A DNA stretch of 64,000 nucleotides from a virus (Duplodnaviria; Caudoviricetes): IMG/VR virus record IMGVR_UViG_3300042274_000720, positions 2,832-66,831 of that record, one strand, 5' to 3'. Positions 10,114 to 26,203 of this stretch are shown one piece after another. The notes beneath the pieces are model-generated. The model was not told the DNA's origin and did no database searches. It saw only the letters and a program-made list of their open reading frames with translations. Each line of letters opens with the position of its first letter. Position 1 is the stretch's first letter. The position numbers and the translations under genes were made by a program.

Positions 10114-10116
10114 CGC

Positions 10117-10686: not shown

Positions 10687-10701
10687 GGTTGGTCTCTCCA
10701 T

Positions 10702-10729: not shown

Positions 10730-10786
10730 GCAGGTAATTCTCGGGTGGCCGTGGGTTCGTCAGTTCAGCGCCTCATAGCGCTTCTC

Positions 10787-10966: not shown

Positions 10967-13900
10967 TCGAAAAGCTCGTTCAGCTTGTCGTTGGTCCGAT
11001 CCATCTTTTCCTCCAACTCCGTCATCCGCGCATCGAACTCTTCCGGGGTGATGCGGTTCCGGCCGTAGTCGCGCTCGACACTTCGCATCTTGGTCTTGAT
11101 GGCGCGCTGGGCCTTTTCGATATCCCATTCCTTCCAGTCGATTCCGGCCTCGACGTCGACACCTTTTGCCTTGATGCCGACACTGGACAAAATGGCCTCC
11201 GGCTTTCCGTAGGGGCGGTCCAGGTAATCCAGCGCCGGCCCTTCCGGTCCACCGGGAATGATACCCGCCCGCTGCCATTTCTCAAAATACCAGGAGCCCG
11301 GCACCCACGGCGCGGACGGCATCCACGCCTTCCAAAGGTAGTCGCCGGCCTTCGCCATCCGCTCGCCCTGGTCATCCACCAGAGGGTCGTAGATATTCTC
11401 TCCGGTGAACGCCGAGCGGTTCAGTATCATTTCGCCGACAAGAGCAATAGGCCCGCTAGGCTGGAGCCATGTGGGCAGGGGCAGCGGCGAGCGGTTGTAG
11501 CCCTGGTCGAAGACGTCGCCGGCCGGAATCCACCGGCGCACGTCCAGGAAGACCGGGTTGTCGTATTCGTCATTCCAGGGCATCCGCAGCATTCGCGGCA
11601 CCCCGACCCAGGTCCAGCCCTCCTCCTCCTTACGAAGCCCCTTGCGCTCCTCTTCCTCGTCGCCACCGGAGGCGAGAGAGCCGAGGGCGTTCACCATGTA
11701 CGCCAGGGTGAAGTATTTCGCGAGCTTCCACGGACGGGCCGCGAGGGACTGCGCGATCACCGGCACCGCTCGATAGGTGTAGGATATGAACGGCAGAACG
11801 GAGCGGCGCGCGGCGTTGATCCAGGGCGCCCGGATGTCGTAGTTGAGGAACTGTTCGCGCGCGGCGGCGGCCGCCATTTCCGGAGTGTCGCCAAGCCCGC
11901 GGCGGCGGATGTAGAGCGCCGTGCGGAACACATCGTCCTCCATCCGGTAGGCGTTCATCATGGCGTTGTCCGCCTTCTTCGCCCACTGCGCCATGCGGCG
12001 CCCCATCTCGCCCAGCGTAAAGACCATCGCGGCCTGGCTGTCGCCCTTGCGCTCCTGGCGCGCGATCTCATCCAGCAGAGGCCCCAGGACATTCTGGCGC
12101 ACTTCCTGCGAGATCATGTCGGACCCGAAGGCGCCGGCGCCCTTGGCCTCCTCGAAGTACCCGTCACCCTTCGCAACAGCGCGCACGGCGCGGGCAAGGT
12201 CGGTGAAGCGGACGTCGGCCATGTCCATGAACATGAGGTTCGACATGACGTTGTTGGTGTGGACGACAGGGCTGCGGGCCGTCTTGTTCAGCTTCCACTG
12301 CGTCAGGACGGCCTGCCACAGGCCGGGGTCGCGGTGCATCCGGTCCAGTTCCGCCAGATCGCGCCACACCTCGGCGCGGACCCACATTCCGGCCAGGGCG
12401 CCATACCGCTTCTTGCCCCCCGTGTTGGGGATTGCGGCTTCGGGCACCTTCACCCAATCGACCCCGGCGAACGTGCTCAGCTTCGTCGCCTCCAGGCTGG
12501 ACACCTTCACGCCCTCGGGCTCGTCCTTCTGCGCCCACGCCTCGTTCTCCGCAATGTCCTTGTAGAAGCGCGCGGTCGCAAGGTCGCGGGACATGGTGTG
12601 GAAGGTCTTGGCGACCGTGTAGCGGGCGTCAAGGATTTCGCCCATCTGCGCCCGCTCCTCCTTGGTGAAGTCGCGCCAGAGAGTCACCTTGCCGCCCTTC
12701 TTCGTCGCGCGCACTTCCCACACGCCGCGATCCTCGTGCCCCTCGAACCGCTTGGGCACAGGCTTGTCCGCCGGCAGGTAGACGCGGGCCTTTACCTTGC
12801 GGGCGCGCTCGCCTTGCCACTCCACGCCGGATAGGTCGTCCATCTCGGGATCGTGCATCAGGTCCATGACGCGGAACTTGCGGCCGACCGACACCTCGGG
12901 CGTCAGGGCTCCGTCGGCCGCCGCACGGTCGCCGTCGGACAGTTTCGCCGCCTCCACGTCCATAAACAGGCCGCGCCCCTTGAGAGCTTCGCCCACGATC
13001 CCCCGGCGGCGGGCGGTATTTTTCATGCGCGTGATCGCGCCGGCAAGCGGCGTCTCTGTCTTTTCCATCTCGTGCTTGGCGTAGACGCGGTGAAGGTAGG
13101 CGCCCCGGTTGCGCTGGTAGGCTTCCGGGCTGACAAGGCCCAGGCGCACGGCTTCGGCGCCCATGTCATCCACCGCCTGCCGGATCGGTGCTGCCAGCTT
13201 CCCGAGGTCGCCCTCCGCCACCCGCTCGCCCGTGAGCATGGCCTGAAGCACGCGTGACTCCTCCAGGCCCACGTCTGCTTCCGTGAGGGTCTTCACGAAG
13301 TCCATGCCCTTGTTGAGAAGGGCGCGTTCCTCGTCCTGGCGCTGGAGGTCGCGGCGCTTGTATTCCTCGCTCAGGCCGTAACGGTCGATCAGTCCGGCAC
13401 GGGCGCGCTCGATGATCGGGTTCACGAGGTTGCCCAGCGCGGACCCGTCTTCAAATTTCGCCTCCGTGACGGCCCGGCTGATCTTCGCCATGGCGGCCTT
13501 GCCCGCTACGGACTCGCCGGCGGCATCCACGCGCCCGACAACCGGGATCATCTGGAACGCGCCCCGGAACGCAGCCTCAAACGGCTGGCCGTCCATAATG
13601 GCGCGAACCAGCGTGCGCTGACGATGAGGCACGGTCTCGGGCGTGGCAGGCAGGTCTTCAATGCGGAGGCGCGCCCGGACGGAGCCCACGGCCTGCTGGG
13701 CGTCCAGCGCCGTCTCCACCGCCCGGTCCCGGGCCTGCATTCCACGCTCGCGCGCCCGGATTTGGCCTCGCGCCGCCCGGGCAAACACGTCCTCTGCCGT
13801 GGCAACATCATCCACCGTCTTGAAGCCCAGCCCCTCCAGAGCACCCCGCACCTTTGCGAGGACACGGCGGATGCGCTCGAACAGTCGGCGCGCGGCGCCG

Positions 13901-16900
13901 GACAGCCCTTTGCCGGCCGCGCGGCCGCGCTGGTAGGCCTCGAAGGCATAGGCCTCAGCCTCTTCCTGATCGAGGCTGTTGATGTCGATGTTGAGGCCCA
14001 GGCTCCGCGCCATCTCCTTCAGCTTGGGCAGATCGTTGCGCAGAGCCGTCAACTCGCCCTGCGTCAGGCCGAAGCCGGTGCGCAAGGAGTGCCAGCCCTC
14101 GTGATAGGTGGTGCTCATCGGGTCGCTGCCGCGCATGGCGATGGCGGCGACGCCGGTCAGCGGGTCCGTCATGCCCGCGACGCTGATGGGCTTGCCGGTC
14201 ACGGCGCCGCCGGATCGGGTGACCGATTCCGCCGTGCCCTCATAGACCACCTTGTCCTGGAGGATGAGCTTGTCGGGATCCAGGCCCATGGACTTCCACG
14301 CCTTGCGGACGGCCCGCTCCACATCGGGGCGCATCCTGTCGAACTCGGGCGTGGCCCGGAGCTTGACGGCACCGTCGCCGACCTCCGCCAGAAACGCAGA
14401 CCGCGCGTCCGCGCTCTTGAACTGGAAGCCCGGCACCGCACTGCGCCCCTTGAAGGCCGAATACCATCCCCCGTGCTTCTCCGCCGTGGCCTTGACGCCG
14501 GCGTAGGTCTCGCGCGGCACGCGGTTCTTGAACGACGCGACGAACAGGTCTTCGCCGGTCTTGCCGTGCTTCGCCTCGGCGGTGTCGAACGCGACGCCGT
14601 GCACCGCGCCATCATCGAACGATTTGGCGTCGCGGGGCGCGTCCCCGGCGGCAACTGCCTGAAGCCATGCGGCCCGAGAGGCTGCATCATCGAACGTGAA
14701 TAGCTTGGAACGCGCCAGGTAGGCGCCTCCGTACTGCTCCGCCAGCTTGGCCAGGCGCCCAAACTCGGAGCGCCCGAGGTACTTCTTGGGCTTCGCGGCC
14801 GTGCCGGTCAGTGTGAACTCCATCCCGCCGATGGTGACGTCACCGTCCGCCGGCATGTCCACGTCAGGCGTGGCCGGTTCCAGCCGATCCGGCACGCTCG
14901 CATCCTCGATGCGGTCGAAGAACTCCCCGATGCTCTCGGCGGTGCTGTAGTCGCTGGTGGTGGAATGGATGCGCTCCACCACGTCCTTGTCGGTCTGCTT
15001 TTCCAGCACGAGGACGTGCGCTCGCACGCTCGTCCCGGCCCGCTCGAACGTCACCGCCGGGAGCTTGATGTCGGCGACCATGAAGACGTCCTTCATGGCG
15101 TCCTGCTCCAGCAGACGTTCCAGCGCCTTGTCGGCGGTCGGGCCTTCCGGCACCAGGGCGACGATGCGTCCACCGTTGCGCAGATGCCGCGCCGCCTTGC
15201 CGACGTGCTCCATCGCCGTCTTGCCGCCGCGTCCGAACGGCGGGTTCATCACGATCGCGTCGAACTTGTTGGCGCCGACGTCCAGGGCCTCGAAGCGATC
15301 CGTCACGACACGCGCGCCGGGGCTGGCGAGTGCCGCGCGGCTCGACAGGTTCTCGGACGGCTCGACCAGGGTGCGGACGCTCCCCTCCGGGAAGAAGCGC
15401 GCAATTGCGCCGTGGCCGGCGGACGGCTCCAGCACCTTCTCGCCGAACTTCACGTTCGCCCACTCGACCATCTTGAGCCCCAGCGGCTCAGGCGTGGCGA
15501 AGTAATCCACGCCCTCGCGCTGATCGCGGCGGCCGGCCTTCTTCTGCTGGGCGTAGTAGAAGGTCTTGGCGCGCTCGAAAGGAGACATGGCCGTGTTGTC
15601 GGCCCGGTCGCGCTCCTTGCCGCCCTTGCCATCGGTCGGTGCCGGCTCGAACGTGTCGCTGTCCATGAAGGCGTCGATGAACGACTGCTTCAGCGCCCGC
15701 GCCCGGTTGCCCATGGCGAGGTTTTCGGCGGTGCCGGCGCGCTCAGCGATTTTGCCCGCGAAGGTCCACCGCTCCCAGGCCGTGCCGGTGTTCATGTACT
15801 CGAACACGGCGTCCGACACCTGCCCGACGCGGTAGATGCGCCCCTCCTCCTGGGTGGCGGTGGTCGGGCGCACGGGCATCCCCAGGTTCAGCAACACCCG
15901 CTGGTGCTGGCCGGTCGTGTCGTGCAGGCTGATCCCTGCCTCGCCGGCGGCGGACTGGATGATGATGAGGTCACGCCCGCTGCCGTCCTCGTTGAACAGG
16001 CGCTTCGCCTCGCGGCGCTGCTTGACCGGCACCTTGCCGTTGTAGACCAGCGCGTCGGGGAACACCTTGGTCAGCGTCTCGATGGGCGCCCGCATGTCGG
16101 AGAAGGACATGCCCTTGACGTCTGGGTTGCGCTTCAGGAACTCCTTGTAGAGCGCGTGGAGGTTCACGTCCTCCTGTTTGCCGTTCCGGTAGACGGTGGC
16201 CTTGGCGCCAGGTGCGATCGACAGGTCGAACGGGTTGAAACCGCCGCCCTCGTTGTAGTCGTGGAAGACGACCACCTTGCGGCCCAACGCGAGGTGCTGC
16301 TTGATGCGCGGCACGGCGTGGTGAGCCTTGATGGCCTCCAGCAGGCGCATCCGGCTCAGGTAGTCGAATTTCTCCATCACCTGATCGTGCAGCGGCCGGA
16401 ACTTGCCGTCGTCCGCCTCCGACAGGAACTTCAGGGCCTCGTCCACCTTGTTGCCGATGGCGTCGTCCACCAGGGCAAAGCGCCGCTCGTAGTCCGCATC
16501 GACATCCAGGGCCCGCCCGGACAGCGCGCCGTCGCGCTTCAGCATCTCGTGGAACTCGCGTTCCAGCACCTCGCCGTTCACGCTGGCGTCCGGCTTGGTC
16601 AGGCGGTTGGTCCGCATCCGGTAGCCGAAGTGCTGCATGAAGAAGCGCGCCCGGCCGTCGCCCGCGTTGTACCGCTGCGCCTCCGCCTGATCGACGGCCT
16701 GGTAGTCGAACAGGTAGCCCTCGGCATAGTCGATCGTCTCCACGTAGGAGAACGGCGTGGCCGACAGGAACAGGACATCAGATCGCGGCCGGCTGCGCAG
16801 ACGCTCTGCCTCCGCCGCGACCTTGGCCTCCAGGTCGCGGTACATGGCGTGCAGTTTGTCGCGCTTCGTCTCCGCCTCGCGCCACTGGCGATCGTCGTCG

Positions 16901-19900
16901 CTCGTGGCGAGGGCTTCAACGTCCCGGCTCAGGGCCTCGATCTTGTCCACGAGGTCGCGGTGCGTGTAGCGCGCCCGCGTGTTCAGCGCACCGGGATGGT
17001 TCGTGATGGCGCGGAAGGTGTCCAGGGCAGAGGTTGCCCGCCCATCGGCCGCGCGCATGAGGCTGTGGGACTCGTCGGGCACCACCAAGTCCCACTCGCG
17101 GTCCGCCAGGTGGCGGTTGGCGCCCAGGTTTGCGTAGGTGGTGACGACGACCCCTTTGCCGGCGTCCGTGGTGCTGTCCAGCGGCGTGATGGTCAGGCCC
17201 AGGTTCTTCGCCGACTTGATCCACTCGGCCACGATGTCCTGGCTCGGCGCCACGATCAGGATGTTGTCGCGACCCTGCTTCGCATACCGCTTGATAACGC
17301 CCAGGCCGACGTAGGTCTTGCCGGTTCCCGTGCCGTTGGTGAACAGGAAGCCGTGCTTGTCGGGCTGCGACAGGCGGGCCTCGGCCTTCTGCACGTCCTC
17401 CTGCTGCGCCGGCTGGAGGAACGGCAGCGTCTCGCGGATGTTGTCGATGTCGCCGGGGCGGACCGGGATGCTCTCCGCCGCTTCCTGGGCGGCGCGCTTG
17501 TCCTCTAGGCCGTGTGCGTCGTCAGCAGTTGCCGCAACTGCTTCTGCTCGGATGCGGTCAGTGCGGAGTCCATCGACGCCAGCATCACCGCCTCGTCCGC
17601 GTCCACCACGTTCGGCAGCGCCCCGGCCGCGTTCGGCTCCTCCCTCACGAAGGCCGCGATCGCCTCGCTCTCCCACACGAGCGGCGCCAGTCGATGAAAC
17701 GCCGCCACGACGTGCGCCGGGTTGCCCGCCTTCTTCAGCTCGGCCGACTCGCGCTCCAGCGCCTTGTCCATCAGATCGCCCGGCAGCGGGAACATCTGCT
17801 GCGCCCACTCGGTCTCCAGGGGCTGCGTCTCCGCGATCCTGTTCCACACCTCGGGGGGCACCTGATGCATAGTCGGTCTCCTGCTCGGGGGCTGCGTCAA
17901 TCTCGGCGGCCGGCGTCATGCCGGTGGCGTCGAAGCCGGGGTAGTATCGCACCCCCTCATACCAGGAGCGCAAGTAGGGGCGCGCTTCCTCGCCCAGGTC
18001 GTTGACCATGGCGCGGGCATAGTCGGAGAATTTCCGGGCCCCCGCCTCGATATGGTAGCCAGCCAGGGTGATGCCGGCCTGCAGGATCTCCGGGTCCAGG
18101 CCGCTGTTCAGTTGCGAGCCCGACAGCTTGCGCTTGAGCAGTTCCCGCGCCTTGGCGGCGGCGTCCTCGGTGAAGACCTTGTTGCTCTTGCCGTACTCGG
18201 TGTCCTGGGCACCAGCGGGAGCGGCGCGGCCACGGTCCGCGTTCTCGCCCTTGGCCGGAGCCCCGGGGGCCGGCTGCGCGGTGCCGAACATATCGGGCTG
18301 ATCCCGCTCCGCCGAGAACAGGCCGCCGTCCTGATCGCGCGCCGACTGCTGACCGCCCCGGCGCATCTTGGATTGCGCGCCGCGCACGCTGGCTTCATCC
18401 TGGTCGCGCCGCTGTTTTTCGGCTTGGACGTCGGCCTTCGCGCGCCGCTCGGCACCGGGCATGACAGCCTGTTCGCGCGGACCATCGGCCGTTTCGATGG
18501 TGTCGGCGGTGCGGTCTGCCCGAGTGGCGGGGGCGACGGGCGCCTCCGCCCCGAACATATCCTCGGTGGCGGTGTCCCGCTCTACTTCTTGATCGGCCCG
18601 AGTTTCGCCTGCAAAGCCAGGATCGCCTTCACGTTCTCGCTGATCTGCCGCTGCCTCGAAGGACTCAAGCCCGCGAACGGTTTCGAGGAACCGCTTTCGG
18701 GCTTCGCCGACGGTGACGTCTCCACCCTTGAGGGCGCGGGCTTGTTCGGTGAGCGCATTGGACACAGGCCCCTTTCGCTGCGCCAGCTTCTCGATTACGG
18801 CGGCAAGCCGCTGGTTCTCGGTCATGCTGCGCTGGTTGGATTGCGCGTCCAGGACGTTCCCGGCGCTCGCCAGGAGCGTTTCGTTGTCGACCGCCGTGCG
18901 GAAGACGGACTTCATCAGACGCAAGTTCTTGGTGGCATTGTCGAGGACTTTGGCGCGCTCCGCAATGAGCGTTTCGGCCATGGCCTCGGCACCGAAAAGC
19001 GATCCCTGCTCGCCCTCGGCGAAGCCAGCGGAGACGATCTCACCCACCAGCAACCGCGCTTCGCTCGCACTGCGCGGCGACACCTTCGCCAGATAGCCCA
19101 GGGCGGCCACCTGCTGCTTGGGGTCGCTGATCCGGCGGCCGACTTCCGCCGCGTATTGCTCGGGCACGGCGCCGTTCACCACCATTCCCCAGGCGTCATC
19201 GCCCAGGTCGGCCAGAGCCTTGCCGTCCTGATAGGCGCGGCGGTTCGGCGGGATGTGGTCCTCGATGGTCTCGGGACGACCGCCATTACGGAACACGCGG
19301 GCCACGTCGAGCGCCTTGGTGCTCTCTCCACCCTCGGCCAGGTTCTTCATGGCGCCGTGGAACATGGCGTCATCGGCGGAAACACCATCCGCCTCGCGCA
19401 GCACCACCGCGCGGATGGCCGGGTTCTGCCCCTCGCGCTTCAGGCGCTTCGCCAGCCCGAGGCGCTGGTGGCCGTCCACGATGAACCGCTTGCCGGCGGT
19501 GTCCTCCCAGACGACGGCGACGCCCGAGTAATCCGGGTTCCACCGCTTCACGCCGCGAAGCTGTTCCGTCACTCCCTCGGCGTCGCCGCCGTCCTTGAAC
19601 TGGAACCGCTTGGCGTCGACCTCGATCGTGTCAGGGTCCAGAAGGGCCGTGTCCGCCGGCGCAGGCGGCGTTTCCTCCGCGGCGACTTCGGGCTGCGGGT
19701 CTGCCCCTGGCACCTCGCCGGTCATGCGCGGGCCGGCGGGCTCCAGTGGTTCGGCCGGCTGAGGTTCTACCGACTCGGCGGCGGGGGCCGGCGGGGTGGT
19801 TTCGGCGGCGGGGGCTTGGGAACGCGGCGCCTCCTGCTGCCGGTCGTCCTGCCCTTCGGCCGACGGCGGCGGAGCAGCACCGATCTGAACGCCGCGCGCC

Positions 19901-21159
19901 CGAAGGTCGTCAACGATCCCCACCAGGACGGACCCGTCCTCCATGAGGACTTTCAGGCCGTCGCCGCGTTCGCTGGCGAACGCGTCCGCCACGATGCCGG
20001 CGGCACCATTGACGGAGACCGGCGTGTTCACAGGCGGCAGGCCGTTCCGCCCCAGGATCGCGTCGGCCTTCTTGGTCGCGGCGGTGTCCGCCATGACCTT
20101 CTGCCCCTCGGCGATCAGGTCCGTCGGGATCGGACTCGCCTCGTCCTCGGGTGTAATCGGCGGCGGCGTGGTTGCGGCCTGCTCGCGCTCGCCCGGCGGG
20201 AGCGGGTCGACCTCGGGTTCGCCGTAGAGCATGGTGGCGGGAATGTCGCCTGGCGGCGCGGCCTGGTTGCGCGTGTCGGGAAGCGGCGCCGTCTTATCGC
20301 GCTGCGGGTCGTCGTTCTTGACGAAGGGATGCGTGGCCGTCGCCATGCCGGCGCCCATGCCGGCACCGATGACCATCGAGTAGCCGACCTTCTCGAGGGC
20401 TTCGCCGACGGTCACGTCCTCGCCAAGCTCACCCACGTCATAGGCCGTCTGCAACGCCTCGGTCGCGCCCTCCTGGAGCCCTTCAGCGACGGTGCCCTGG
20501 ATCACGCGCGACAACAGGCTCTTGCCGCCCTTCAGGATGATCCCGAGGGGTAGCATTTCGGTCGCGCCTTCGGCCATGGCGTAGGCCGTGGCGTCCTGCG
20601 CGGCCTCCTCCGGCGTGCGTCCCTGTTCACGGGATTCGGCGTAGCGGTCACCGAACACCTGAGCGCCGATCGTAGCTGCGCCAGCTGCCGGGGTCCGGGT
20701 GGCGATGGACGCGGCGACACCCGGAAACATCTGCGCGCCCGCAACACCCAAGTTGTAGGCGATACCTTTTCCCGACCACTTGTCGACGTTCGGCGCGTTC
20801 TCCTGGAGCGCCTGCCCCGCCTCCGCGCTCATACGCTCGCCGCTCGCGGCCAGTGCGCCACGCCGGCTCTGCTGCATGTCTTGTCGTTCGCGCGCAACGC
20901 GGCTGATCAACGGATTGGCGGCGTCCTCGGCCAGGCGCCGATCGCTCTCGGAGAACGGATCACCCGCCTCCCCCGCCGCCTGCATGACACCGCCAATCCC
21001 CCGCTTGAATGCCTGCGGGACGTTCTCGACCAGCTTGCCGCCAATATCACCCCACGAGGCTTCGAAGGGGTTTCCGTCGACCGGGGCGAGACTGGTTTTC
21101 GACTGCTTCTGCTCGTTGTCGTCGGCGAACGGGTTGTAGTCGACCGGGGCCAGCGCCAT
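10963..21159 (-). CDS. 3398-aa large polyvalent (DarB-like) protein: ParB-like domain, strawberry-notch-type SF2 helicase, N6-adenine MTase, HExxH peptidase-like domain
   Basis: FIVDGHQRL (ParB-like), TNGTGTGKT/PDESH/SATP/EEGRIYR (helicase), VLEPSAGHG and NPPFG (MTase), HEGWH. Confidence 0.85.
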   Translation of the reverse strand: MALAPVDYNPFADDNEQKQSKTSLAPVDGNPFEASWGDIGGKLVENVPQAFKRGIGGVMQAAGEAGDPFSESDRRLAEDAANPLISRVARERQDMQQSRRGALAASGERMSAEAGQALQENAPNVDKWSGKGIAYNLGVAGAQMFPGVAASIATRTPAAGAATIGAQVFGDRYAESREQGRTPEEAAQDATAYAMAEGATEMLPLGIILKGGKSLLSRVIQGTVAEGLQEGATEALQTAYDVGELGEDVTVGEALEKVGYSMVIGAGMGAGMATATHPFVKNDDPQRDKTAPLPDTRNQAAPPGDIPATMLYGEPEVDPLPPGEREQAATTPPPITPEDEASPIPTDLIAEGQKVMADTAATKKADAILGRNGLPPVNTPVSVNGAAGIVADAFASERGDGLKVLMEDGSVLVGIVDDLRARGVQIGAAPPPSAEGQDDRQQEAPRSQAPAAETTPPAPAAESVEPQPAEPLEPAGPRMTGEVPGADPQPEVAAEETPPAPADTALLDPDTIEVDAKRFQFKDGGDAEGVTEQLRGVKRWNPDYSGVAVVWEDTAGKRFIVDGHQRLGLAKRLKREGQNPAIRAVVLREADGVSADDAMFHGAMKNLAEGGESTKALDVARVFRNGGRPETIEDHIPPNRRAYQDGKALADLGDDAWGMVVNGAVPEQYAAEVGRRISDPKQQVAALGYLAKVSPRSASEARLLVGEIVSAGFAEGEQGSLFGAEAMAETLIAERAKVLDNATKNLRLMKSVFRTAVDNETLLASAGNVLDAQSNQRSMTENQRLAAVIEKLAQRKGPVSNALTEQARALKGGDVTVGEARKRFLETVRGLESFEAAADQREREGDPGFAGETRADQEVERDTATEDMFGAEAPVAPATRADRTADTIETADGPREQAVMPGAERRAKADVQAEKQRRDQDEASVRGAQSKMRRGGQQSARDQDGGLFSAERDQPDMFGTAQPAPGAPAKGENADRGRAAPAGAQDTEYGKSNKVFTEDAAAKARELLKRKLSGSQLNSGLDPEILQAGITLAGYHIEAGARKFSDYARAMVNDLGEEARPYLRSWYEGVRYYPGFDATGMTPAAEIDAAPEQETDYASGAPRGVEQDRGDAAPGDRVGAADVPAAGRSDGQGAGARVGRAEEGGQPGARRGGVSSTGAARVGERGDRGLREGGAERGRGAAERGGRGRGGDAGVDGLRTDRIRAEAVAATADDAHGLEDKRAAQEAAESIPVRPGDIDNIRETLPFLQPAQQEDVQKAEARLSQPDKHGFLFTNGTGTGKTYVGLGVIKRYAKQGRDNILIVAPSQDIVAEWIKSAKNLGLTITPLDSTTDAGKGVVVTTYANLGANRHLADREWDLVVPDESHSLMRAADGRATSALDTFRAITNHPGALNTRARYTHRDLVDKIEALSRDVEALATSDDDRQWREAETKRDKLHAMYRDLEAKVAAEAERLRSRPRSDVLFLSATPFSYVETIDYAEGYLFDYQAVDQAEAQRYNAGDGRARFFMQHFGYRMRTNRLTKPDASVNGEVLEREFHEMLKRDGALSGRALDVDADYERRFALVDDAIGNKVDEALKFLSEADDGKFRPLHDQVMEKFDYLSRMRLLEAIKAHHAVPRIKQHLALGRKVVVFHDYNEGGGFNPFDLSIAPGAKATVYRNGKQEDVNLHALYKEFLKRNPDVKGMSFSDMRAPIETLTKVFPDALVYNGKVPVKQRREAKRLFNEDGSGRDLIIIQSAAGEAGISLHDTTGQHQRVLLNLGMPVRPTTATQEEGRIYRVGQVSDAVFEYMNTGTAWERWTFAGKIAERAGTAENLAMGNRARALKQSFIDAFMDSDTFEPAPTDGKGGKERDRADNTAMSPFERAKTFYYAQQKKAGRRDQREGVDYFATPEPLGLKMVEWANVKFGEKVLEPSAGHGAIARFFPEGSVRTLVEPSENLSSRAALASPGARVVTDRFEALDVGANKFDAIVMNPPFGRGGKTAMEHVGKAARHLRNGGRIVALVPEGPTADKALERLLEQDAMKDVFMVADIKLPAVTFERAGTSVRAHVLVLEKQTDKDVVERIHSTTSDYSTAESIGEFFDRIEDASVPDRLEPATPDVDMPADGDVTIGGMEFTLTGTAAKPKKYLGRSEFGRLAKLAEQYGGAYLARSKLFTFDDAASRAAWLQAVAAGDAPRDAKSFDDGAVHGVAFDTAEAKHGKTGEDLFVASFKNRVPRETYAGVKATAEKHGGWYSAFKGRSAVPGFQFKSADARSAFLAEVGDGAVKLRATPEFDRMRPDVERAVRKAWKSMGLDPDKLILQDKVVYEGTAESVTRSGGAVTGKPISVAGMTDPLTGVAAIAMRGSDPMSTTYHEGWHSLRTGFGLTQGELTALRNDLPKLKEMARSLGLNIDINSLDQEEAEAYAFEAYQRGRAAGKGLSGAARRLFERIRRVLAKVRGALEGLGFKTVDDVATAEDVFARAARGQIRARERGMQARDRAVETALDAQQAVGSVRARLRIEDLPATPETVPHRQRTLVRAIMDGQPFEAAFRGAFQMIPVVGRVDAAGESVAGKAAMAKISRAVTEAKFEDGSALGNLVNPIIERARAGLIDRYGLSEEYKRRDLQRQDEERALLNKGMDFVKTLTEADVGLEESRVLQAMLTGERVAEGDLGKLAAPIRQAVDDMGAEAVRLGLVSPEAYQRNRGAYLHRVYAKHEMEKTETPLAGAITRMKNTARRRGIVGEALKGRGLFMDVEAAKLSDGDRAAADGALTPEVSVGRKFRVMDLMHDPEMDDLSGVEWQGERARKVKARVYLPADKPVPKRFEGHEDRGVWEVRATKKGGKVTLWRDFTKEERAQMGEILDARYTVAKTFHTMSRDLATARFYKDIAENEAWAQKDEPEGVKVSSLEATKLSTFAGVDWVKVPEAAIPNTGGKKRYGALAGMWVRAEVWRDLAELDRMHRDPGLWQAVLTQWKLNKTARSPVVHTNNVMSNLMFMDMADVRFTDLARAVRAVAKGDGYFEEAKGAGAFGSDMISQEVRQNVLGPLLDEIARQERKGDSQAAMVFTLGEMGRRMAQWAKKADNAMMNAYRMEDDVFRTALYIRRRGLGDTPEMAAAAAREQFLNYDIRAPWINAARRSVLPFISYTYRAVPVIAQSLAARPWKLAKYFTLAYMVNALGSLASGGDEEEERKGLRKEEEGWTWVGVPRMLRMPWNDEYDNPVFLDVRRWIPAGDVFDQGYNRSPLPLPTWLQPSGPIALVGEMILNRSAFTGENIYDPLVDDQGERMAKAGDYLWKAWMPSAPWVPGSWYFEKWQRAGIIPGGPEGPALDYLDRPYGKPEAILSSVGIKAKGVDVEAGIDWKEWDIEKAQRAIKTKMRSVERDYGRNRITPEEFDARMTELEEKMDRTNDKLNELFE
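17505..17870 (-). CDS. Nested +1-frame gene (121 aa) inside the giant ORF
   Basis: AGGAG 7 nt before ATG; nested frame carries the GC3 bias while the host frame becomes G/R-rich low complexity. Confidence 0.75.
   Translation of the reverse strand: MHQVPPEVWNRIAETQPLETEWAQQMFPLPGDLMDKALERESAELKKAGNPAHVVAAFHRLAPLVWESEAIAAFVREEPNAAGALPNVVDADEAVMLASMDSALTASEQKQLRQLLTTHTA
18582..18758 (-). CDS. Second nested +1-frame ORF (58 aa) inside the giant ORF
   Basis: AAGGGG before ATG; C-terminal half (RQRQISENVKAILALQAKLGPIKK) carries the GC3 bias. Confidence 0.45.
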   Translation of the reverse strand: MRSPNKPAPSRVETSPSAKPESGSSKPFAGLSPSRQRQISENVKAILALQAKLGPIKK

Positions 21160-21162
21160 TCT

Positions 21163-22071
21163 TTACTCCTCCACCACGCGGTAGAACTTGCCGTCCCGCT
21201 CGACGTACCAGTTTCCGTCAGGCGCCTTGCGCGCATCGGGATAATCCGCCGGCGGCTTCTTTCCACGCGCACCATCCTGGGGCCTCTCCGCTCCTTCCTG
21301 AGCAGAGGCGTCGCCGCCGGTGACGAGGTTGACGGCCTTGTCAAACCACCCCGCCTCGTCCTTCTTCTCCGGCGGCGGGGGCGGCGCGTCAGGGACCGAA
21401 ATGCCGGCCCGCTGCTGGGCCATGCGCCAGAGTTCCCCGTCATCGGTGCGACGCGACGACATATCAGCCTTCATGGACTTGTAGATGGACGACGCGATGC
21501 GCAGGCGGGCCGTCGGGTCCGCGCGGCCGGTGCGGATGAAGTCGATCGCTTCGTCCCGCGTCATGTCGCCGCTCTGCGTGAGGTATTCGATCATCCGCGC
21601 ATCGGCCGGAAGATCAGCCGTACCGCTCTCTGCCGCCGGCTTCAGCGGGTTCCCCTGAGCATCGGTGACCGGCACGGCCTTGTTGTCGGGGCCATAGGTG
21701 TAGAGGTTGCCGTCGTCGCCAACGACCGTTTCGCGGTTCGACAGCAGACCGCGCCGGGCCTCCCGCTCCTTCTCCGCTTCCGAAGACCGGAACGCGCGGT
21801 CGGCGGCGCTCTCGCCAGCACGAAAACCACGGTCCTTGCGCGCCTCGCCAGCCCGGAACGCCCGGTCCGCCGTGTTCTCGCCGACCGTGAATTGCTGCTG
21901 GTCGTCCTGCCGCGCCATGGCGTTGCCGTGCTCGATCCCGATCAGCTCCTTGCGCCGACCGTGCTCCAGTTCCGCCAGCCGCGCCTCACGCGCCGCCCGG
22001 CCGTTCTCGACCATGCCCGTGCCGAGGCCCTGCAGAAGGCCGCCGGCGACCTGTGCCCATTCCTTCGCCAT
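21163..22071 (-). CDS. Putative internal virion / ejection protein
   Basis: Position between tail genes and the giant protein; helical, charged. Confidence 0.5.
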   Translation of the reverse strand: MAKEWAQVAGGLLQGLGTGMVENGRAAREARLAELEHGRRKELIGIEHGNAMARQDDQQQFTVGENTADRAFRAGEARKDRGFRAGESAADRAFRSSEAEKEREARRGLLSNRETVVGDDGNLYTYGPDNKAVPVTDAQGNPLKPAAESGTADLPADARMIEYLTQSGDMTRDEAIDFIRTGRADPTARLRIASSIYKSMKADMSSRRTDDGELWRMAQQRAGISVPDAPPPPPEKKDEAGWFDKAVNLVTGGDASAQEGAERPQDGARGKKPPADYPDARKAPDGNWYVERDGKFYRVVEE

Positions 22072-22077
22072 GGTGCC

Positions 22078-22737
22078 TTACCCCCGCTTCCGTTCGTCAG
22101 CCTCGGCCGGGCGGCGCTGCTCGCCCTCGCCGCCTTCCCCGCCCTGGCGCTTGCGGGCGAAATGCTCCTTCAAGCCCGGCATGGCCTGATCCAGTTGCCC
22201 GGCGCGGTCGGCCTCCACCAGCCGGCGCATTTCCTCCTGATAGCGCCTCTGGTCGAGTTCGCCGTTCTCCTGCTTGTACTGGCGGAACTGGTCGACCGCG
22301 CGATAGAACGCGCCGTCGATCTCCTCCTGGCTGAACTGGTGGATGCCGGCCTTCTCCGCCGTCTGCGCGAGGTCGGCCACGATCTCGGCCATGGCTTCCA
22401 GGACAAGCTGGCGCCCAAGCTGCTGGCCGTTCTCCTGCGCGGACTTGTCCACGCGCGACATTGCCATGGCGACGATACCGGAAAGCGCCTCCTGCGGCGT
22501 GCTGGCGGCGACCGCCGCCTTCATGCGCTGGATCACCTGCGGGAAGGTCTTCTCGCTGTAGATGATGCGCAGGGCGTTGTCGATGGTCTGCTCATAGAGC
22601 GCCTGTTCCTGCGGCGACGCCTGCCCGCCGCCCTGCTGCTGCCCCTGCTGGGTCGCCGGGGCGCCGCCGCGCTCGGGCATGGGGGCGCCGTTGCCCTGCG
22701 CCGGCTCCCGGCGGGGCATGAGTCCACGTTTTTCCAT
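22078..22737 (-). CDS. Hypothetical virion-region protein
   Basis: Co-oriented ORF, helical, strong GC3. Confidence 0.6.
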   Translation of the reverse strand: MEKRGLMPRREPAQGNGAPMPERGGAPATQQGQQQGGGQASPQEQALYEQTIDNALRIIYSEKTFPQVIQRMKAAVAASTPQEALSGIVAMAMSRVDKSAQENGQQLGRQLVLEAMAEIVADLAQTAEKAGIHQFSQEEIDGAFYRAVDQFRQYKQENGELDQRRYQEEMRRLVEADRAGQLDQAMPGLKEHFARKRQGGEGGEGEQRRPAEADERKRG

Positions 22738-22750
22738 GATCTGTCCCTGT

Positions 22751-23890
22751 TCAGAAGGTGCCGCTCATCAGCCAGTCGGCGCTGAAGCGTTCATCAGGGT
22801 TGAAGTAGCCGGGGCGGTTGTCGACGTCCTCCTGGGTCAGGAGGCCGCGCAGCCCGTAGTTCTCCGGCGCCGCCGGGGTGTTGCCGCCCTGCCCGTACCC
22901 GGCCGGCGACGGGTTGGGCGCCGGGGAGCCCCCGGTCGCGGGCGCACCACCACCACCACCGTCACCGTCGCGGAAGGGATCGCCGCCGGAGAACGCGCTG
23001 ACAGCGTTCTTCGCCATGCCGCGCGCGGTGCGCCCCTTCTCCGCCGGGGTTCCGGTGCCCAGCATCCCGCCCAGCGCCTTGCCCGCCATGGCGCCCGGCA
23101 TCCCGGCGACCATCCCGCCGGCCAGGGCGCCCGCGTTGCGGAAGTCGCCCCGGCGAATGCCGTCGATCGCCCGATACCCCTTCATGGCAAGCCCGACCAT
23201 GGGTACGCCGCCGGCCAGGATGCCCGCGATCGCGTTGGGATCGGACTTCCGGGGATCGGCCGTCAGCCCCATCATACCGCCCACGGCCGCCAGCGAGCGG
23301 TCCACCGGGTTGTTGGAGTTCATCGGGTTGTCGAAGTCGTTGTAGGCGTTCGCCGCCTGCATTTCCTTGGTGCGCTTGGCGCCGCCCGTCAGCCCGTTGA
23401 TGCCGGTTGTCGAGTGGCTCTTGAGGCGGTCGATGGCGTTGAAGCCGTGGACGGGGTTGTTCGTCATGCCGGGATGACCGCGCCCGCCAGTCGCGCCGCC
23501 CAACTTGCCGCCCATCTGGCTCGTGTTGTTGACGCCGGCGCCGATGCTGGTGGACGGGCCGTTGCGGTTGGACGTGCCGCCCATGCCGGGGTGACCACCG
23601 CCGCCACCGTCACGGCCGCCGCCGCGGCCACCTCCCCCACCGCCGACAGAGCCGCCGCCGCTGCCGGCGCCGGGGCCATGACCGGGATCGGCGCCGGGCG
23701 GGAAGGCCGGAACCTCGTCGGGGCCGATGATCTGCTGGCCGTTCTCGTCAATGCCGCCGCCGCGCTCCCGGAGCACCGCCGCCTCGTCCTCGGTGATGTA
23801 GGCCAGGAAATGCGGCTGGCCCTTCACGCTGGCCTTGCGTGGCGCCTCGGCGGTGCCGCTCTTGATCGCGCTCAGAAGTCCCTTGGTCAT
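22751..23890 (-). CDS. Gly-rich putative internal virion protein
   Basis: HFLAYITEDEAAVLRERGG motif familiar from phage internal proteins; Gly-rich with hydrophobic segments. Confidence 0.55.
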   Translation of the reverse strand: MTKGLLSAIKSGTAEAPRKASVKGQPHFLAYITEDEAAVLRERGGGIDENGQQIIGPDEVPAFPPGADPGHGPGAGSGGGSVGGGGGGRGGGRDGGGGGHPGMGGTSNRNGPSTSIGAGVNNTSQMGGKLGGATGGRGHPGMTNNPVHGFNAIDRLKSHSTTGINGLTGGAKRTKEMQAANAYNDFDNPMNSNNPVDRSLAAVGGMMGLTADPRKSDPNAIAGILAGGVPMVGLAMKGYRAIDGIRRGDFRNAGALAGGMVAGMPGAMAGKALGGMLGTGTPAEKGRTARGMAKNAVSAFSGGDPFRDGDGGGGGAPATGGSPAPNPSPAGYGQGGNTPAAPENYGLRGLLTQEDVDNRPGYFNPDERFSADWLMSGTF

Positions 23891-23898
23891 GGTTCACC

Positions 23899-24873
23899 TC
23901 ACGCGACGGCCGGCTGGTTGGGCACGAACACCACGCGGCGCTGGCGGGGGTCGTAGACGTAGCGGCCGGGGCCGGTCGTGCCGTAAATCTGCCGGTCGTA
24001 GACCTCGCCCGGCGTTGGGCCCTGCGCGCCGGAGCCCGCGCCCGACCGGCTCAGGAGGCCGGTCATCCCGCCGCCACCACCGTAGTTGTCGGCGATCATC
24101 TGCTGCTTGGCGCGCATCTCCTCGATGTTCGCCCGCGCCCGCGCCTGGGCCTCGTCCTCCGGCGAGGTCGCCGAGGCCATCGCCAGCAGCCCGCCGCCGA
24201 GGCCCTTGGCCGCCTGCCCGACCAGTTCGCCGTTGCGCTCCAGCCAGCCGCCCTCGCCGAAGAACGCGGTCTTGGCGCCGCTTCCACCACCACCGCCGCC
24301 ACCGGACGCGCCGGAACCGCCGCCGAAGATGGAGCCGTGGTTGGTGGGGAGCGAACTGCTGGTGCCGTCCGCCGCGCTGGTGACCTGCAGGGCCTCGCTC
24401 GCCTTCGACAGCGGCGCATCCACCGCCGCGCCCTGCGACGCCGCCACCGGGACGGCCGCCGCTGCCTGCGACACGCTGGCCTGGATGCCCTCGGACGTGC
24501 TGGACTCCTCGCCGCCGAACGCGCCCTTGAGCGGGTCGGCCAAGTCCTGCCCGCCGATGCCGCCCATGACGCCGCCGGTGACCAAGCCACCCAGCGCGCC
24601 CATCCTGGCGCCGTCCATGAAGTCGCCGCCCATCACCATCGAGGCCACGCCGCCCAGCGCCGCACCGTAGCCGGCCTGGGTGATCGCGCCCGTGATGACG
24701 TCGCCCACGATCCCGTCCAGCCCCACGCTCTCGGTGATGCCGGAAACGATGTCGCCCCAGCCGCCCGTCGAACCGCCGAACGCTGCCCCGGCCGTGAACA
24801 CGACGGCGCCGGCGGAGAGAGCCACCGGCGCGACGTCCTTCACGGTGTCGAGGACTTTGCTGAAAAAGCCCAT
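23899..24873 (-). CDS. Gly/Ala-rich putative ejection (DNA transfer) protein
   Basis: MGFFSKVLDTVKDVAPVAL..., GxxxG hydrophobic helices. Confidence 0.55.
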   Translation of the reverse strand: MGFFSKVLDTVKDVAPVALSAGAVVFTAGAAFGGSTGGWGDIVSGITESVGLDGIVGDVITGAITQAGYGAALGGVASMVMGGDFMDGARMGALGGLVTGGVMGGIGGQDLADPLKGAFGGEESSTSEGIQASVSQAAAAVPVAASQGAAVDAPLSKASEALQVTSAADGTSSSLPTNHGSIFGGGSGASGGGGGGGSGAKTAFFGEGGWLERNGELVGQAAKGLGGGLLAMASATSPEDEAQARARANIEEMRAKQQMIADNYGGGGGMTGLLSRSGAGSGAQGPTPGEVYDRQIYGTTGPGRYVYDPRQRRVVFVPNQPAVA

Positions 24874-24886
24874 GATTCCCTCCTCC

Positions 24887-25549
24887 TCAGTACGTCGGCT
24901 TGGGCGTGACGTCGAAGTTCTGCTTCAGGTCCGGGTTGCCGGTGGACGGCCACTCCAGGTCGATGTTGTACATCTGCTCCACGAAGTTCAGGTTCGCATC
25001 GCGCAGGGCGCCGATGTGCTCGTTCAGCTGGTTGCGCGCCTTGACCGGGATCGCCGAGTTGTTGGCGATGTTGCTGAACATATCGGCGTAGCCGCGCTCC
25101 ATGGACGCGATCATGGAGGCCGCATCCTTGCGCTCGGTGGCCGCAACCGACATGGCGGCGATCTTTTCCCTGCTCGCATTGTCCAGCTTGAGTCGATCCA
25201 TCTGCGCGGACAGTTCGGTGTCCAGCAGGCCGCGCTGCAGTTTGTAGTCGTGCTCGGAGGCGTCCTTGCGCTGCGTGTGCTCCTGGGCCGACAGGCGACT
25301 GGTCTGCCCGAAGTTCTGGTGCGAAAAATTCTTCTGGAAGGTCTGGCTGGCGTCCTGGCTGGCGATCGGCAGGGCGACGTCATAGGCCGCGTTCTCCGCC
25401 GCGCCGACGGCCATGGAGGAGTTCAGCAAGCCGCGCCGGTTCGCCTGCTGAAGGCCCTGCGTGCGGGCCTTCTTCATCAGCGGCGAGTTCTGGCTGGTGA
25501 TCTTGGTCACGCCGTCGGCGACCGAATCGTTTCCGTATGCCCCGTACAT
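24887..25549 (-). CDS. Hypothetical virion-region protein
   Basis: Co-oriented ORF, Q/A-rich helical. Confidence 0.6.
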   Translation of the reverse strand: MYGAYGNDSVADGVTKITSQNSPLMKKARTQGLQQANRRGLLNSSMAVGAAENAAYDVALPIASQDASQTFQKNFSHQNFGQTSRLSAQEHTQRKDASEHDYKLQRGLLDTELSAQMDRLKLDNASREKIAAMSVAATERKDAASMIASMERGYADMFSNIANNSAIPVKARNQLNEHIGALRDANLNFVEQMYNIDLEWPSTGNPDLKQNFDVTPKPTY

Positions 25550-25562
25550 GGTCGGTACTCCC

Positions 25563-25865
25563 TTACTTGCTCTGCCCGGTCACCCGGTTGGCGATCCACT
25601 TGGCGCCCTGCTTCTCGATCAGCAGCAGCGCCGGGTGGCAGACGAAGCCGGCCACCAGCAGCATCCCGTCACGATAGGCCATGTCCGGCTCCAGGAACTC
25701 GCCCACGGTCACGCCCAGCCAGAAGCCGGCCAGGACGTTGATGAAGAACACACCCCAGCGGAGCGCGTAGCCCTTCTGCGTGTGGGCCCACAGGTAGTTG
25801 ACGAGGGCGCCGAAGCCGCCCAGCAGGCCCGCCATAGCCATTTCCGTGAAGCGAAATTCGGGCAC
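25563..25865 (-). CDS. Small 3-TM protein, possible LydA-like holin
   Basis: GTG start with AGGAGG RBS; three hydrophobic segments. Confidence 0.5.
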   Translation of the reverse strand: MPEFRFTEMAMAGLLGGFGALVNYLWAHTQKGYALRWGVFFINVLAGFWLGVTVGEFLEPDMAYRDGMLLVAGFVCHPALLLIEKQGAKWIANRVTGQSK

Positions 25866-26197: not shown

Positions 26198-26203
26198 GGT
26201 GCG

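Follow-up and report, generated by a model that had tools for sequence, protein, structure and literature searches.

The window analyzed here, a 64,000-nucleotide (nt) stretch of viral DNA, carries on its minus strand a giant open reading frame (ORF) at positions 10963 to 21159, which translates to 3398 amino acids (aa) and encodes a DarB-like polyvalent protein. Pfam matches in this protein were ResIII, Helicase_C, Helicase_C_4, AAA_34, and MTS. ResIII (residues 1248 to 1370), Helicase_C (1669 to 1779), and Helicase_C_4 (1727 to 1828) fall within an SF2 helicase module (residues ~1216 to 1880; minus strand, 15520 to 17514), whose motifs I, Ia, II, III, V, and VI were invariant in alignment A2. 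The MTS match (residues 1940 to 2019; minus strand, 15103 to 15342; E = 5e-6) marks the methyltransferase domain of a helicase-methylase dyad, in which an NPPF-type motif was invariant in the same alignment. With an SF2 helicase and an N6-adenine methylase joined in one giant multidomain product, the gene belongs with P1 DarB and with the DarB-like methylase-helicase dyad described for polyvalent proteins (Iyer et al. 2017, PMC5512222). On the N-terminal side of the helicase, residues ~994 to 1085 (minus strand, 17905 to 18180) form a predicted domain of four helices (AF2 pLDDT, 64 to 90). The giant gene adjoins lysis genes, and the DarB-like annotation of its relatives makes the giant protein a candidate for delivery by the virion. 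The genome that hosts it is ~60 kb, with no evident need for compression.

The DNA between the helical domain and the helicase can be read twice. In the giant (host) frame, it encodes a linker (residues ~1086 to 1214; minus strand, 17518 to 17904). In the +1 frame, an ATG at 17870 opens 121 codons that end at a TAG (17507 to 17505), and we refer to this nested gene (minus strand, 17505 to 17870) as B. Because B lies wholly inside the giant ORF, on the same strand and in a different frame, the two make up an embedded overlapping pair. The helicase module starts three codons past the nested stop codon, and in the window's copy no ATG, GTG, or TTG was found between that stop and the conserved N-terminal motif of the helicase. 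The helicase part was never seen with a start codon of its own after B. A promoter and terminator scan of positions 17200 to 18300 found no minus-strand promoter site and no terminator-like hairpin after the nested stop.

The coding signal switches to the +1 frame exactly from the ATG at 17870 to the TAG at 17505. Across the segment, the G+C fraction at codon positions 1, 2, and 3 was 0.93, 0.70, and 0.43 in the host frame and 0.70, 0.43, and 0.93 in the +1 frame; the third-position value (GC3) of the entire giant ORF was 0.85. In 120-nt sliding windows, host-frame GC3 dropped from 0.80 to 0.90 down to 0.40 to 0.50 between ~17860 and 17500, +1-frame GC3 reached 0.90 to 0.97 across the B segment, and right past the TAG host-frame GC3 was back at 0.97. 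A first-pass annotation of this DNA, made from the sequence alone, had proposed a fully nested +1-frame gene here from a hand count of codons ending in A or T and from an AGGAG-N7-ATG signal. The codon bias holds over the entire segment, and the signal is present as described: the Shine-Dalgarno (SD) sequence AGGAG lies at 17878 to 17882 (minus strand, within host Gln-Glu codons), 7 nt 5′ of the nested ATG.

Conservation of B was examined in related loci. A search of viral contigs with B alone found no related locus. Among 31 related viral contigs from IMG/VR, the B translation was conserved in all 31, always in the +1 frame relative to both flanks, with 30 to 48% identity and a best E value of 2e-30. 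A +1-frame B was likewise found by tblastn at five of five genome loci with upstream DNA and by HMM in locus L039 (E = 3e-25), and a +1-frame homologue was present in 46 of the 46 related loci for which upstream DNA was available. Six distinct cultured phages (8 records) carry B nested, each time inside one annotated giant coding sequence (CDS): Vibrio phages 1.232.O and D274, Klebsiella phage vB_KpnP_ZX1, Serratia phage Parlo, Pseudomonas phage Skulduggery, and Ruegeria phage 45A6. Cultured-phage records label the giant homologue "DarB-like antirestriction protein," "PLxRFG protein," or "N-6 adenine-specific DNA methylase," and B is annotated in none of the related loci. The giant gene contains 40 same-strand alternative-frame ORFs of at least 60 aa, of which only B was conserved as a translation. 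Contigs from two further metagenome runs cover all of B, including its two boundaries, and align to it with 0 differences and 0 gaps, so the layout is not an indel artifact of this assembly.

Some of the relatives retain the upstream helical domain in the host frame, at a variable distance from B. L055 and L059 lack it: their host ORF begins 53 to 90 codons ahead of the nested ATG. Even there, with a leader of 53 to 90 codons in place of the upstream part, B stands directly 5′ of the helicase. In 8 of 8 phage records, B was found together with this helicase subfamily, and the two flanks of B share one reading frame in every locus.

Start and stop signals of B are kept as well. The nested ATG was retained in 39 of 39 distinct loci, and an SD-like motif lies 4 to 12 nt upstream in 32 of these (82%), against a background of 6 to 9% when other positions, or other ATGs, in these loci were taken. 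In ~10 loci a +1-frame stop codon stands directly before the nested ATG, and the B stop codon is conserved among the relatives. As far as can be read from the sequence, B has initiation signals of its own.

We then compared selection on the two frames. In close pairs of relatives, substitutions were counted by codon position: those at B positions 1, 2, and 3 numbered 46, 35, and 113 (P = 1e-12), and those in the helicase flank numbered 94, 65, and 381 in the host phase. Inside the segment it is codon position 1 of the host frame that is most often substituted. Substitutions thus follow the phase of B within the segment and that of the host frame outside it, which supports purifying selection on the B frame across relatives. 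The host frame contained no stop codon within the B segment in any of the 46 loci, with 0.4 to 2.9 stops per locus expected from synonymous permutation and 1.6 to 13 from flank codon usage. Multiplied over 25 lineages, the probability of an open host frame was 1e-18 by synonymous permutation and 1e-40 by flank codon usage. In Vibrio phages (46% GC), 12 to 13 host-frame stops were expected and the frame is open; T occupies 5% of B third positions versus 33% in the flanks, while A remains at 27%. In free-standing copies of the B domain, the equivalent of the host frame contained 1, 11, 2, 1, and 4 stops (five of five tested). These data support the view that the host frame is kept open against expectation, so that both frames are open and the inner one carries the mark of purifying selection. 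The first-pass annotation had pointed to homologues, to selection in each frame, and to tblastn or HMM searches as ways to check its proposal, and on all three the nested gene held up: the +1 frame is open and conserved in every locus, the substitution counts follow it, and the searches recovered it nested in related loci and in cultured phages.

The two readings of the segment differ in what they are predicted to encode. The host-frame product across B is rich in G, R, D, E, and A, and AF2 gave it a pLDDT of 23 to 30 without secondary structure, compared with 80 to 94 for its flanks (alignment of host-frame translations). The host reading of B's DNA is therefore predicted to be disordered, in keeping with the earlier description of a G/R-rich linker that reads through the gene, and this linker is open in every relative. 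The 121-aa product of B (P0001), which had been described as globular-looking, is predicted to be an all-helical domain of seven helices (AF2 pLDDT, 95.4; pTM, 0.88). One part of the first-pass annotation probably needs revision. It had called B an overprinted gene, and this direction is probably wrong. A frame newly born inside an older gene is usually restricted in distribution and disordered or unusual in composition, and the older frame is folded and more widespread; since B is predicted to be folded, is constrained, and also occurs in ordinary non-overlapping genes, it does not have the character of a frame created de novo by overprinting, and it is the linker that looks like the secondary reading.

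Searches with B pointed to no characterized family. B had no match in Pfam, PHROGs, NCBIfam, or PADLOC, and neither had longer B-containing proteins, except for DUF6794 in the tail of P0092. Neither PDB nor BFVD yielded a Foldseek match at an E value of ≤0.001, and a search of the ESM Atlas gave no usable match. A VIA-align comparison with 48,161 chains had a best Z score of 4.6 (YpgQ), within the noise for helical proteins, and a PDB profile search gave matches only at E values of ≥0.055. The N-terminal domain of PrmC/HemK (PrmC_N, PF17827) matched weakly in 5 of 80 B family members (best E value, 0.0015); HemK chains reached an E value of 0.6 in the PDB profile search and were absent from the top 50 structural matches. 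LPD3 gave a single weak Pfam match in 1 of the 80 members. Two candidate relationships were rejected. TnpV (PF14198) had no match in the record at an E value of ≤10 and matched 0 of 80 family members at an E value of ≤1, and a resemblance of the N-terminal part of P0011 and P0023 to the window's upstream helical domain was dropped when BLASTP found no similarity. We regard the B family as new, with no recognizable fold and no relative established by these searches.

The family is nonetheless sizeable. Relatives of B fall into 326 clusters, most of ~120 aa and aligned from residue 1, and Met1 is common to the free-standing homologues and nested B. Among the best 150 relatives, there was no giant protein that carries B in its own frame. 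Most members have a pI of 4.1 to 5.3, and those of Vibrio phages have a pI of 9.1 to 9.3; these basic members argue against a simple DNA-mimic mechanism, and DNA mimicry is disfavored as a general mode of action. Three of six free-standing B-domain proteins are encoded beside restriction-modification (R-M) genes with an SF2 motor and an N6-methylase, and the other three have no neighboring helicase or methylase. Some are located in mobile islands next to type I R-M operons, and a B-domain gene can stand first in such an operon.

To examine how B might relate to its neighbor, we modeled B together with helicase-methyltransferase residues 1216 to 2060. The complex scored 0.69 (runs of 0.25, 0.69, and 0.71, so that one of the three scored just 0.25); 58 of 80 solved complexes and 2 of 110 mismatched pairs attain this mark, a calibration that is only roughly valid here, where our own alignments were used. 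The controls, two with an unrelated partner and one with an unrelated 883-residue protein replacing the helicase, all scored 0.00 (best of 3). The runs agreed in at least 0% of contacts, and the pLDDT of the partner was at least 83. The interface comprised residues 61 to 68, 90 to 101, 148 to 154, 252 to 256, 526 to 529, and 549 to 564 of the helicase fragment. These stretches are motifs I, Ia, II, III, V, and VI, all invariant in alignment A2. The model places B in the ATPase/DNA cleft of the helicase and suggests a helicase plug. The first-pass annotation had guessed at an in-cis inhibitor; the predicted complex and its controls fit that guess, which at this point has the standing of a structural model.

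Taken together, the sequence evidence makes it very likely that positions 17870 to 17505 (minus strand) are a genuine, independently initiated gene and that its DNA is dual coding. Ribosomes starting at the SD sequence and ATG of B would produce a compact helical protein of 121 residues. Ribosomes translating the giant ORF would read the segment one base earlier, as a disordered tether of ~125 residues rich in G, R, D, and E that would join the upstream part of the giant protein to the SF2 helicase-methylase module. Selection preserves the amino acid sequence of B and requires of the host frame no more than that it stay open, which is seen as the avoidance of T at B third codon positions. We further propose that B docks in the cleft formed by the two RecA-like lobes, spanning motifs I, Ia, II, III, V, and VI, where it would act as a brake or gate on ATPase activity and DNA translocation; because one mRNA encodes both, with B just ahead of the helicase, loading onto the nascent enzyme would be favored. 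This role, as a trans-acting partner of the helicase encoded immediately downstream, is in our view the most likely function of B, at about even odds. The statement as a whole, dual coding and brake function together, we judge to be somewhat probable.

The principal alternative accepts that B is a real nested gene but holds that its product is not aimed at the phage's own helicase. DarA, Hdf, and Ulx are assembly and packaging helpers for P1 DarB, and B could be such a helper for the giant protein; alternatively, it could be an anti-restriction factor directed against SF2 motors of the bacterial host (type I HsdR or type III Res). Its position beside the helicase would then reflect history or co-expression only. 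Relatives of the giant gene are annotated as DarB-like antirestriction proteins, in L059 a neighboring gene carries a DarA_N domain, and the free-standing B-domain proteins in mobile islands beside type I R-M operons could be anti-restriction cargo. Moreover, because close cousins of a true partner also reach the complex mark, a pose in the cleft of a generic SF2 fold might just as well stand for another true target, such as an SF2 enzyme of the host. Against this, B is linked one-to-one with its helicase subfamily and always directly precedes the helicase, even where other parts of the gene differ; at the head of a type I R-M operon, a built-in regulator is easier to account for than an anti-restriction gene; and both unrelated-partner controls and the 883-residue replacement control failed to score. 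We consider this alternative unlikely, although it is by far the strongest competitor of the proposed brake on the adjacent helicase.

A different view is that the giant ORF is not translated across the segment at all and that the region consists of three cistrons (the upstream protein, B, and the helicase), the open host frame being a by-product of base composition. In the window, which is 66% GC, G or C occupies 93% of host first positions, and the frame was open by chance in 16 to 45% of simulations; Prodigal-type calls on some contigs also split the region into B and a downstream gene. Against this, the host frame is open in all 46 loci, including the Vibrio phages with their 12 to 13 expected stops and their fall in third-position T from 33% to 5%, for a joint probability of 1e-18 to 1e-40, whereas free-standing copies of B do have stops in the equivalent frame. 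Both flanks keep to one frame throughout the loci, no stop codon interrupts the upstream part, and in the window the helicase motif three codons past the B stop is reached without an ATG, GTG, or TTG. We regard three cistrons as very improbable.

Slightly less probable still is that B is reached by programmed frameshifting, either through a +1 shift that would yield a truncated upstream-B fusion or through a -1 shift at the end of B that would yield a B-helicase fusion. Phages do make two products in fixed ratios by programmed frameshifts, B is one base off the host frame, and its end is the start of the helicase. Yet Met1 and its ATG are conserved in all loci with an SD-like motif, in-frame stop codons directly precede the ATG in ~10 of them, and free-standing homologues begin at the same Met. 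No slippery heptamer was seen by eye at either end of the window's copy, and a -1 shift at the end of B would not require an open host frame along B, yet that frame is open. B therefore does not have the features of a programmed frameshift product. That there is no gene here, but a chance ORF or a giant-protein domain displaced from its frame by compensating indels or assembly errors, is next to impossible: high-GC genomes are rich in long spurious ORFs, and the giant gene holds 40 alternative-frame ORFs of at least 60 aa, but only B among these is conserved as a protein, the out-of-frame layout recurs in every relative at 30 to 48% identity, contigs from two further metagenome runs are identical and free of gaps, no giant protein with an in-frame B occurs among the best 150 relatives, and the fold prediction for B is confident.

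The arrangement recalls several known systems. In phage lambda, the spanin genes Rz and Rz1 are embedded, Rz1 being a short lipoprotein, and both products are needed and work together physically. As in that pair, the inner gene B lies wholly within a same-strand outer gene, in the +1 frame, with its own start codon and ribosome binding site. In contrast, the part of Rz that Rz1 overlaps is structured, and together the two proteins make up the spanin, whereas B is predicted to be a folded protein whose outer reading is a disordered tether in a multienzyme giant, and the relation proposed for B and the giant protein is that of regulator and enzyme, known here from sequence and models. In hepatitis B virus (HBV), the polymerase spacer, which is disordered and poorly constrained, overlaps the preS/S envelope gene. 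There, too, the DNA for a disordered spacer of a multidomain protein encodes a constrained protein, with selection in the phase of the inner gene. HBV, however, is an animal virus with an extremely compact genome and two functionally unrelated products, while B has a predicted binding partner in the neighboring domain of the outer protein. Swi2/Snf2 enzymes offer a mechanistic parallel: AutoN and NegC of ISWI and the chromodomains of Chd1 pack on the ATPase lobes or cleft and gate ATP hydrolysis and translocation. The complex model suggests a similar helical element at the ATPase cleft. The Swi2/Snf2 elements are in-cis segments of eukaryotic remodelers, whereas B would be a separate polypeptide encoded inside the gene of its enzyme, and no relation in sequence or fold between B and these elements was found. 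To our knowledge, long same-strand overlaps in which both frames are demonstrably selected are rare in tailed phages. Reviews of overlapping genes use the lambda pair for comparison (for example, PMC3494269).

None of the literature searched describes a gene nested within a polyvalent or DarB-like gene. In the text of PMC5512222, "frameshift" and "overlapping" are absent, and the single uses of "reading frame" and "embedded" are unrelated to a second-frame gene; B is not one of the in-frame domains of polyvalent proteins described there. P1 itself was not found by tblastn with B. Gene callers are by design blind to long same-strand overlaps, and B has escaped annotation in six distinct cultured phages (8 records) as well as in dozens of phages known from metagenomes.

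The locus offers a clean test system: in the window, a single T-to-C change destroys the nested start codon and is silent in the host frame (TAT to TAC). The case also shows that what looks like a linker in a giant protein can be a second gene, with consequences for annotating and engineering phages and for predicting domain boundaries. More tentatively, and less likely than not in our view, B may be a dedicated off-switch that plugs the cleft and is loaded cotranslationally, a domain borrowed by type I R-M operons as a brake and by membrane effectors of bacterial islands as a sensor head, and the linkers of polyvalent proteins may systematically hide regulator genes. If the docking model is right, B would represent a new family that controls SF2 helicase-methylase machines, including the anti-restriction proteins that phages inject, and its free-standing relatives may control type I restriction enzymes.

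The source record of the window is a 66.8-kb IMG/VR provirus, and its giant open reading frame (ORF) of 3398 aa lies on the minus strand (21159 to 10963). Domain searches placed SF2 helicase signatures (ResIII, Helicase_C, Helicase_C_4, and AAA_34) at residues ~1248 to 1828 of the translation and a small methyltransferase domain at residues 1940 to 2019. Nested in this ORF on the same strand is a gene of 121 codons, here called B (ATG at 17870, TAG at 17507 to 17505), one base downstream of the host phase and with AGGAG (17882 to 17878) 7 nt 5′ of its ATG. GC content at codon positions 1, 2, and 3 across B is 0.93, 0.70, and 0.43 in the host frame and 0.70, 0.43, and 0.93 in the +1 frame; third-position GC (GC3) of the entire giant ORF is 0.85, and the GC3 signal changes frame sharply at the ATG and TAG of B. 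The codon counts by which the first-pass annotation singled out this frame are thus valid across the full segment. The B segment and both boundaries were recovered with 0 differences and 0 gaps in contigs from two further metagenome runs, which rules out an assembly error behind the out-of-frame layout. Immediately downstream of the giant gene lie two genes (both within 9505 to 10701, minus strand) with lysis-family matches, one holin-like (phrog_1544/phrog_3427) and one endolysin (phrog_315), and the six genes upstream (21163 to 26393) had no PHROG match.

Relatives were fetched by a search with the conserved start of the helicase, which yielded 31 loci from IMG/VR and 7 from bacterial metagenome-assembled genomes (MAGs). 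Each of the 31 viral loci, and each of the six MAG loci with upstream DNA still present, has a homologue of B (30 to 48% identity) that is +1 relative to the helicase and aligned from Met1, with the host frame unbroken; at one locus, L039, it was detected only by HMM (E value of 3e-25). B is also +1 relative to the upstream helical domain wherever that domain is detectable. Among 50,697 phage records searched by tblastn, eight carry B, representing six distinct cultured phages (Vibrio phages 1.232.O and D274, Klebsiella phage vB_KpnP_ZX1, Serratia phage Parlo, Pseudomonas phage Skulduggery, and Ruegeria phage 45A6). All eight place it in the +1 frame of a single annotated giant CDS, labeled “DarB-like antirestriction protein,” “PLxRFG protein,” “N-6 adenine-specific DNA methylase,” or “hypothetical protein,” and the small gene is annotated in none of them. 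The helicase N-terminal region (E value of ≤1e-10) was found in exactly those eight records and no others, and co-occurrence of the two is therefore one to one. As a control, we examined 40 alternative-frame ORFs of at least 60 aa in the window's giant gene, and only B was conserved as a protein across relatives. The prediction of a conserved +1-frame gene is borne out by these loci and phage records.

In two relatives, L055 and L059, the host ORF begins only a short way upstream of B (about 90 and 53 codons ahead of its ATG, respectively), spans B, and then runs on into the helicase; the rest of the upstream portion of the giant protein is encoded there by separate genes, one of them with a DarA_N domain. 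A short leader, a linker over B, and the helicase thus make up the conserved unit. At L059 (1664 to 5179), where the giant protein is divided among several genes, an upstream piece of 1171 aa has the DarA_N domain, a link between these phages and the Dar system of P1.

The initiation signals of the +1 frame are conserved as well. The ATG of B is present in 39/39 distinct loci. In 32 of them, 4 or more nucleotides matching AGGAGG lie 4 to 12 nt before it, against background rates in the same loci of 9% (other positions) and 6% (other ATGs); the other seven have G-rich runs in its place. In about ten loci, a stop codon in the frame of B lies immediately 5′ of its ATG, which excludes entry into B by an upstream frameshift.

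Both frames bear marks of selection. For a stop to arise in the host frame, a nested codon must end in T and the next one must begin with AA, AG, or GA. When synonymous codons were permuted with the B protein fixed, the host frame stayed open in just 2 to 63% of trials per locus, and when they were drawn from flank usage it stayed open in 0 to 20%; it is open in all actual loci. The product of these probabilities over 25 lineages is about 1e-18 (permutation) or 1e-40 (flank usage), figures that shared ancestry somewhat overstates. In the Vibrio phages (46% GC), where 12 to 13 host-frame stops are expected, third-position T is 5% in B versus 33% in the flanks and A remains at 27%, indicating specific avoidance of T rather than GC-richness. 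Five free-standing homologues of the B domain, used as a negative control, contain 1, 11, 2, 1, and 4 stops in the corresponding frame. Pairwise comparison of close relatives gave counts of differences over the nested segment of 46/35/113 at codon positions 1, 2, and 3 of B (chi-square P value of 1e-12), and counts over the adjacent helicase of 94/65/381 at positions 1, 2, and 3 of the host frame; the phase of purifying selection therefore moves by one base exactly over B. As judged from substitutions, the host-frame amino acids over B would be essentially free. Position counts and codon simulations together show the frame of B to be constrained and the host frame to be held open.

The two readings also differ in predicted structure. 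Across an 80-member alignment, Met1, W9, N10, F27, P63, L64, E67, A70, E93, A94, L112, and L116 of B are invariant or nearly so, and AlphaFold2 with this alignment gave a compact seven-helix domain (mean pLDDT of 95.4, pTM of 0.88), a confident fold for what had been called globular by eye. The host-frame reading (residues ~1086 to 1214 of the giant protein), modeled together with its flanks from 21 homologues, has a pLDDT of 23 to 30 and no secondary structure; it is flanked by a four-helix domain and the helicase, each with a pLDDT of 80 to 94. The giant protein is therefore predicted to read the DNA of B as a disordered tether, in agreement with the linker first proposed.

Other linkers of the giant protein drew attention. 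A second GC3 dip at 18520 to 18760 (minus strand; 0.47 to 0.68 in the host frame versus 0.78 to 0.82 in the +1 frame) encodes a low-complexity D/E/R/A-rich host peptide; since its alternative-frame ORFs are not conserved in relatives, it appears to be an ordinary linker and not another nested gene. By eye, a short motif of the GGLF...D(M/L)FG type (DGGLFSAERDQPDMFGTAQP) was seen at ~18270 to 18340 (host residues ~940 to 960); it recurs upstream of B in the linkers of L004, L015, and L023 (alignment A3 of relatives), and DMFG appears again about 90 residues further upstream in the window's protein. The motif may serve polyvalent proteins in docking or in processing.

With HMMER, 326 clusters of B were recovered from 1.8 billion representatives (E value of ≤1e-3), most of them about 120 aa and aligned from residue 1; the best 150 include no giant protein that carries the B domain in frame. 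Many of these 120-aa proteins come from short contigs on which the giant ORF is invisible to the gene caller, and on longer contigs seemingly stand-alone calls turn out to be nested. Nonoverlapping copies comprise one solitary gene on a 38%-GC contig and N-terminal domains of longer proteins in integrase-bearing islands. In three of six free-standing contexts, the neighbors are restriction-modification genes that include an SF2 motor and an N6-methylase: at L045 and L061/L062, a type I operon opens with the B-domain gene, and at L051, the B-domain gene lies beside genes for an MmeI-type methylase, an SNF2 helicase, Dcm, and Vsr. In the L061/L062 operon (9156 to 15895; HsdM, HsdS, and HsdR), a DarT-Macro (DarTG-like) pair is inserted between hsdS and hsdR. 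Two bacterial proteins, P0050 (L056, 722 to 2341) and P0149, join an N-terminal B domain to a C-terminal multipass membrane region, and one adjoins a divergent HTH_3 regulator; the architecture is reminiscent of sensor-effector defense proteins, and PADLOC gave no match for it. A 566-aa island protein (P0092; L044, 3562 to 5262) has two B-domain copies and ends in DUF6794. No relatives of B were found in profile or fold libraries, and TnpV was rejected as its identity by profile searches.

Because B is the folded, widespread, and constrained reading, unlike the disordered and unconstrained host reading, its frame would by the usual criteria be primary in the segment, the giant ORF having come to read over it. 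Free-standing copies at three loci of 38 to 61% GC (L052, 784 to 1137; L045, 8001 to 8354; L051, 8370 to 8717) have third-position T of 9 to 10%, G of 45 to 53%, and just 1 to 2 stops in the phage read-through frame, and they look recently released from nesting; the copy at L044 (32% GC) has ordinary composition and 11 stops. Given the low T and high G of those three, nested copies may have preceded free ones.

Given the strict linkage of B to the helicase, we modeled B in complex with residues 1216 to 2060 of the giant protein, each given as an alignment. The complex scored 0.69 (runs of 0.25, 0.69, and 0.71), and the best of three controls scored 0.00; in calibration, that mark was reached by 58/80 solved complexes and 2/110 mismatched pairs, counts that apply roughly to our own alignments. 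The runs agreed in at least 0% of contacts, with a partner pLDDT of at least 83. The model favors binding of B to this region, with confident contacts at fragment residues 61 to 68, 90 to 101, 148 to 154, 252 to 256, 526 to 529, and 549 to 564. In alignment A2 of relatives, they correspond to the invariant GTGTGKT (motif I), the motif Ia region, DE (motif II), SAT (motif III), motif V, and QxxGRxxR (motif VI); jointly, these motifs make up the cleft in which ATP and DNA bind, between the two RecA-like lobes. From this predicted docking, B may be read as a partner that gates the SF2 motor, most simply as a brake, and it would be translated from the shared mRNA just before the helicase leaves the ribosome. 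As the chief alternative, B would act on another SF2 enzyme, for instance a host restriction motor, or would assist in packaging the giant protein. For the earlier suggestion of an in-cis inhibitor, docking on the helicase is what the complex model predicts; we consider the chances that B is a helicase partner or brake to be about evenly balanced.

Embedded same-strand gene pairs are known from lambda Rz/Rz1, phiX174, and comS in srfAB, and the hepatitis B virus polymerase has a disordered spacer overlapping a constrained gene, as the giant-protein linker overlaps B. A full-text literature search did not find a description of a gene nested in polyvalent or DarB-like proteins. In the paper that defines DarB-like methylase-helicase dyads (PMC5512222), “frameshift” and “overlapping” are absent from the text, and its single uses of “reading frame” and “embedded” are unrelated to a second-frame gene. 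Conservation, selection, and fold models together confirm the original observation and support its reading as a real +1-frame gene with a host linker, and dual coding of the segment is very probable. B is a new protein family, the inner member of a nested gene pair, and is apparently linked to the enzyme domain that is encoded beside it.
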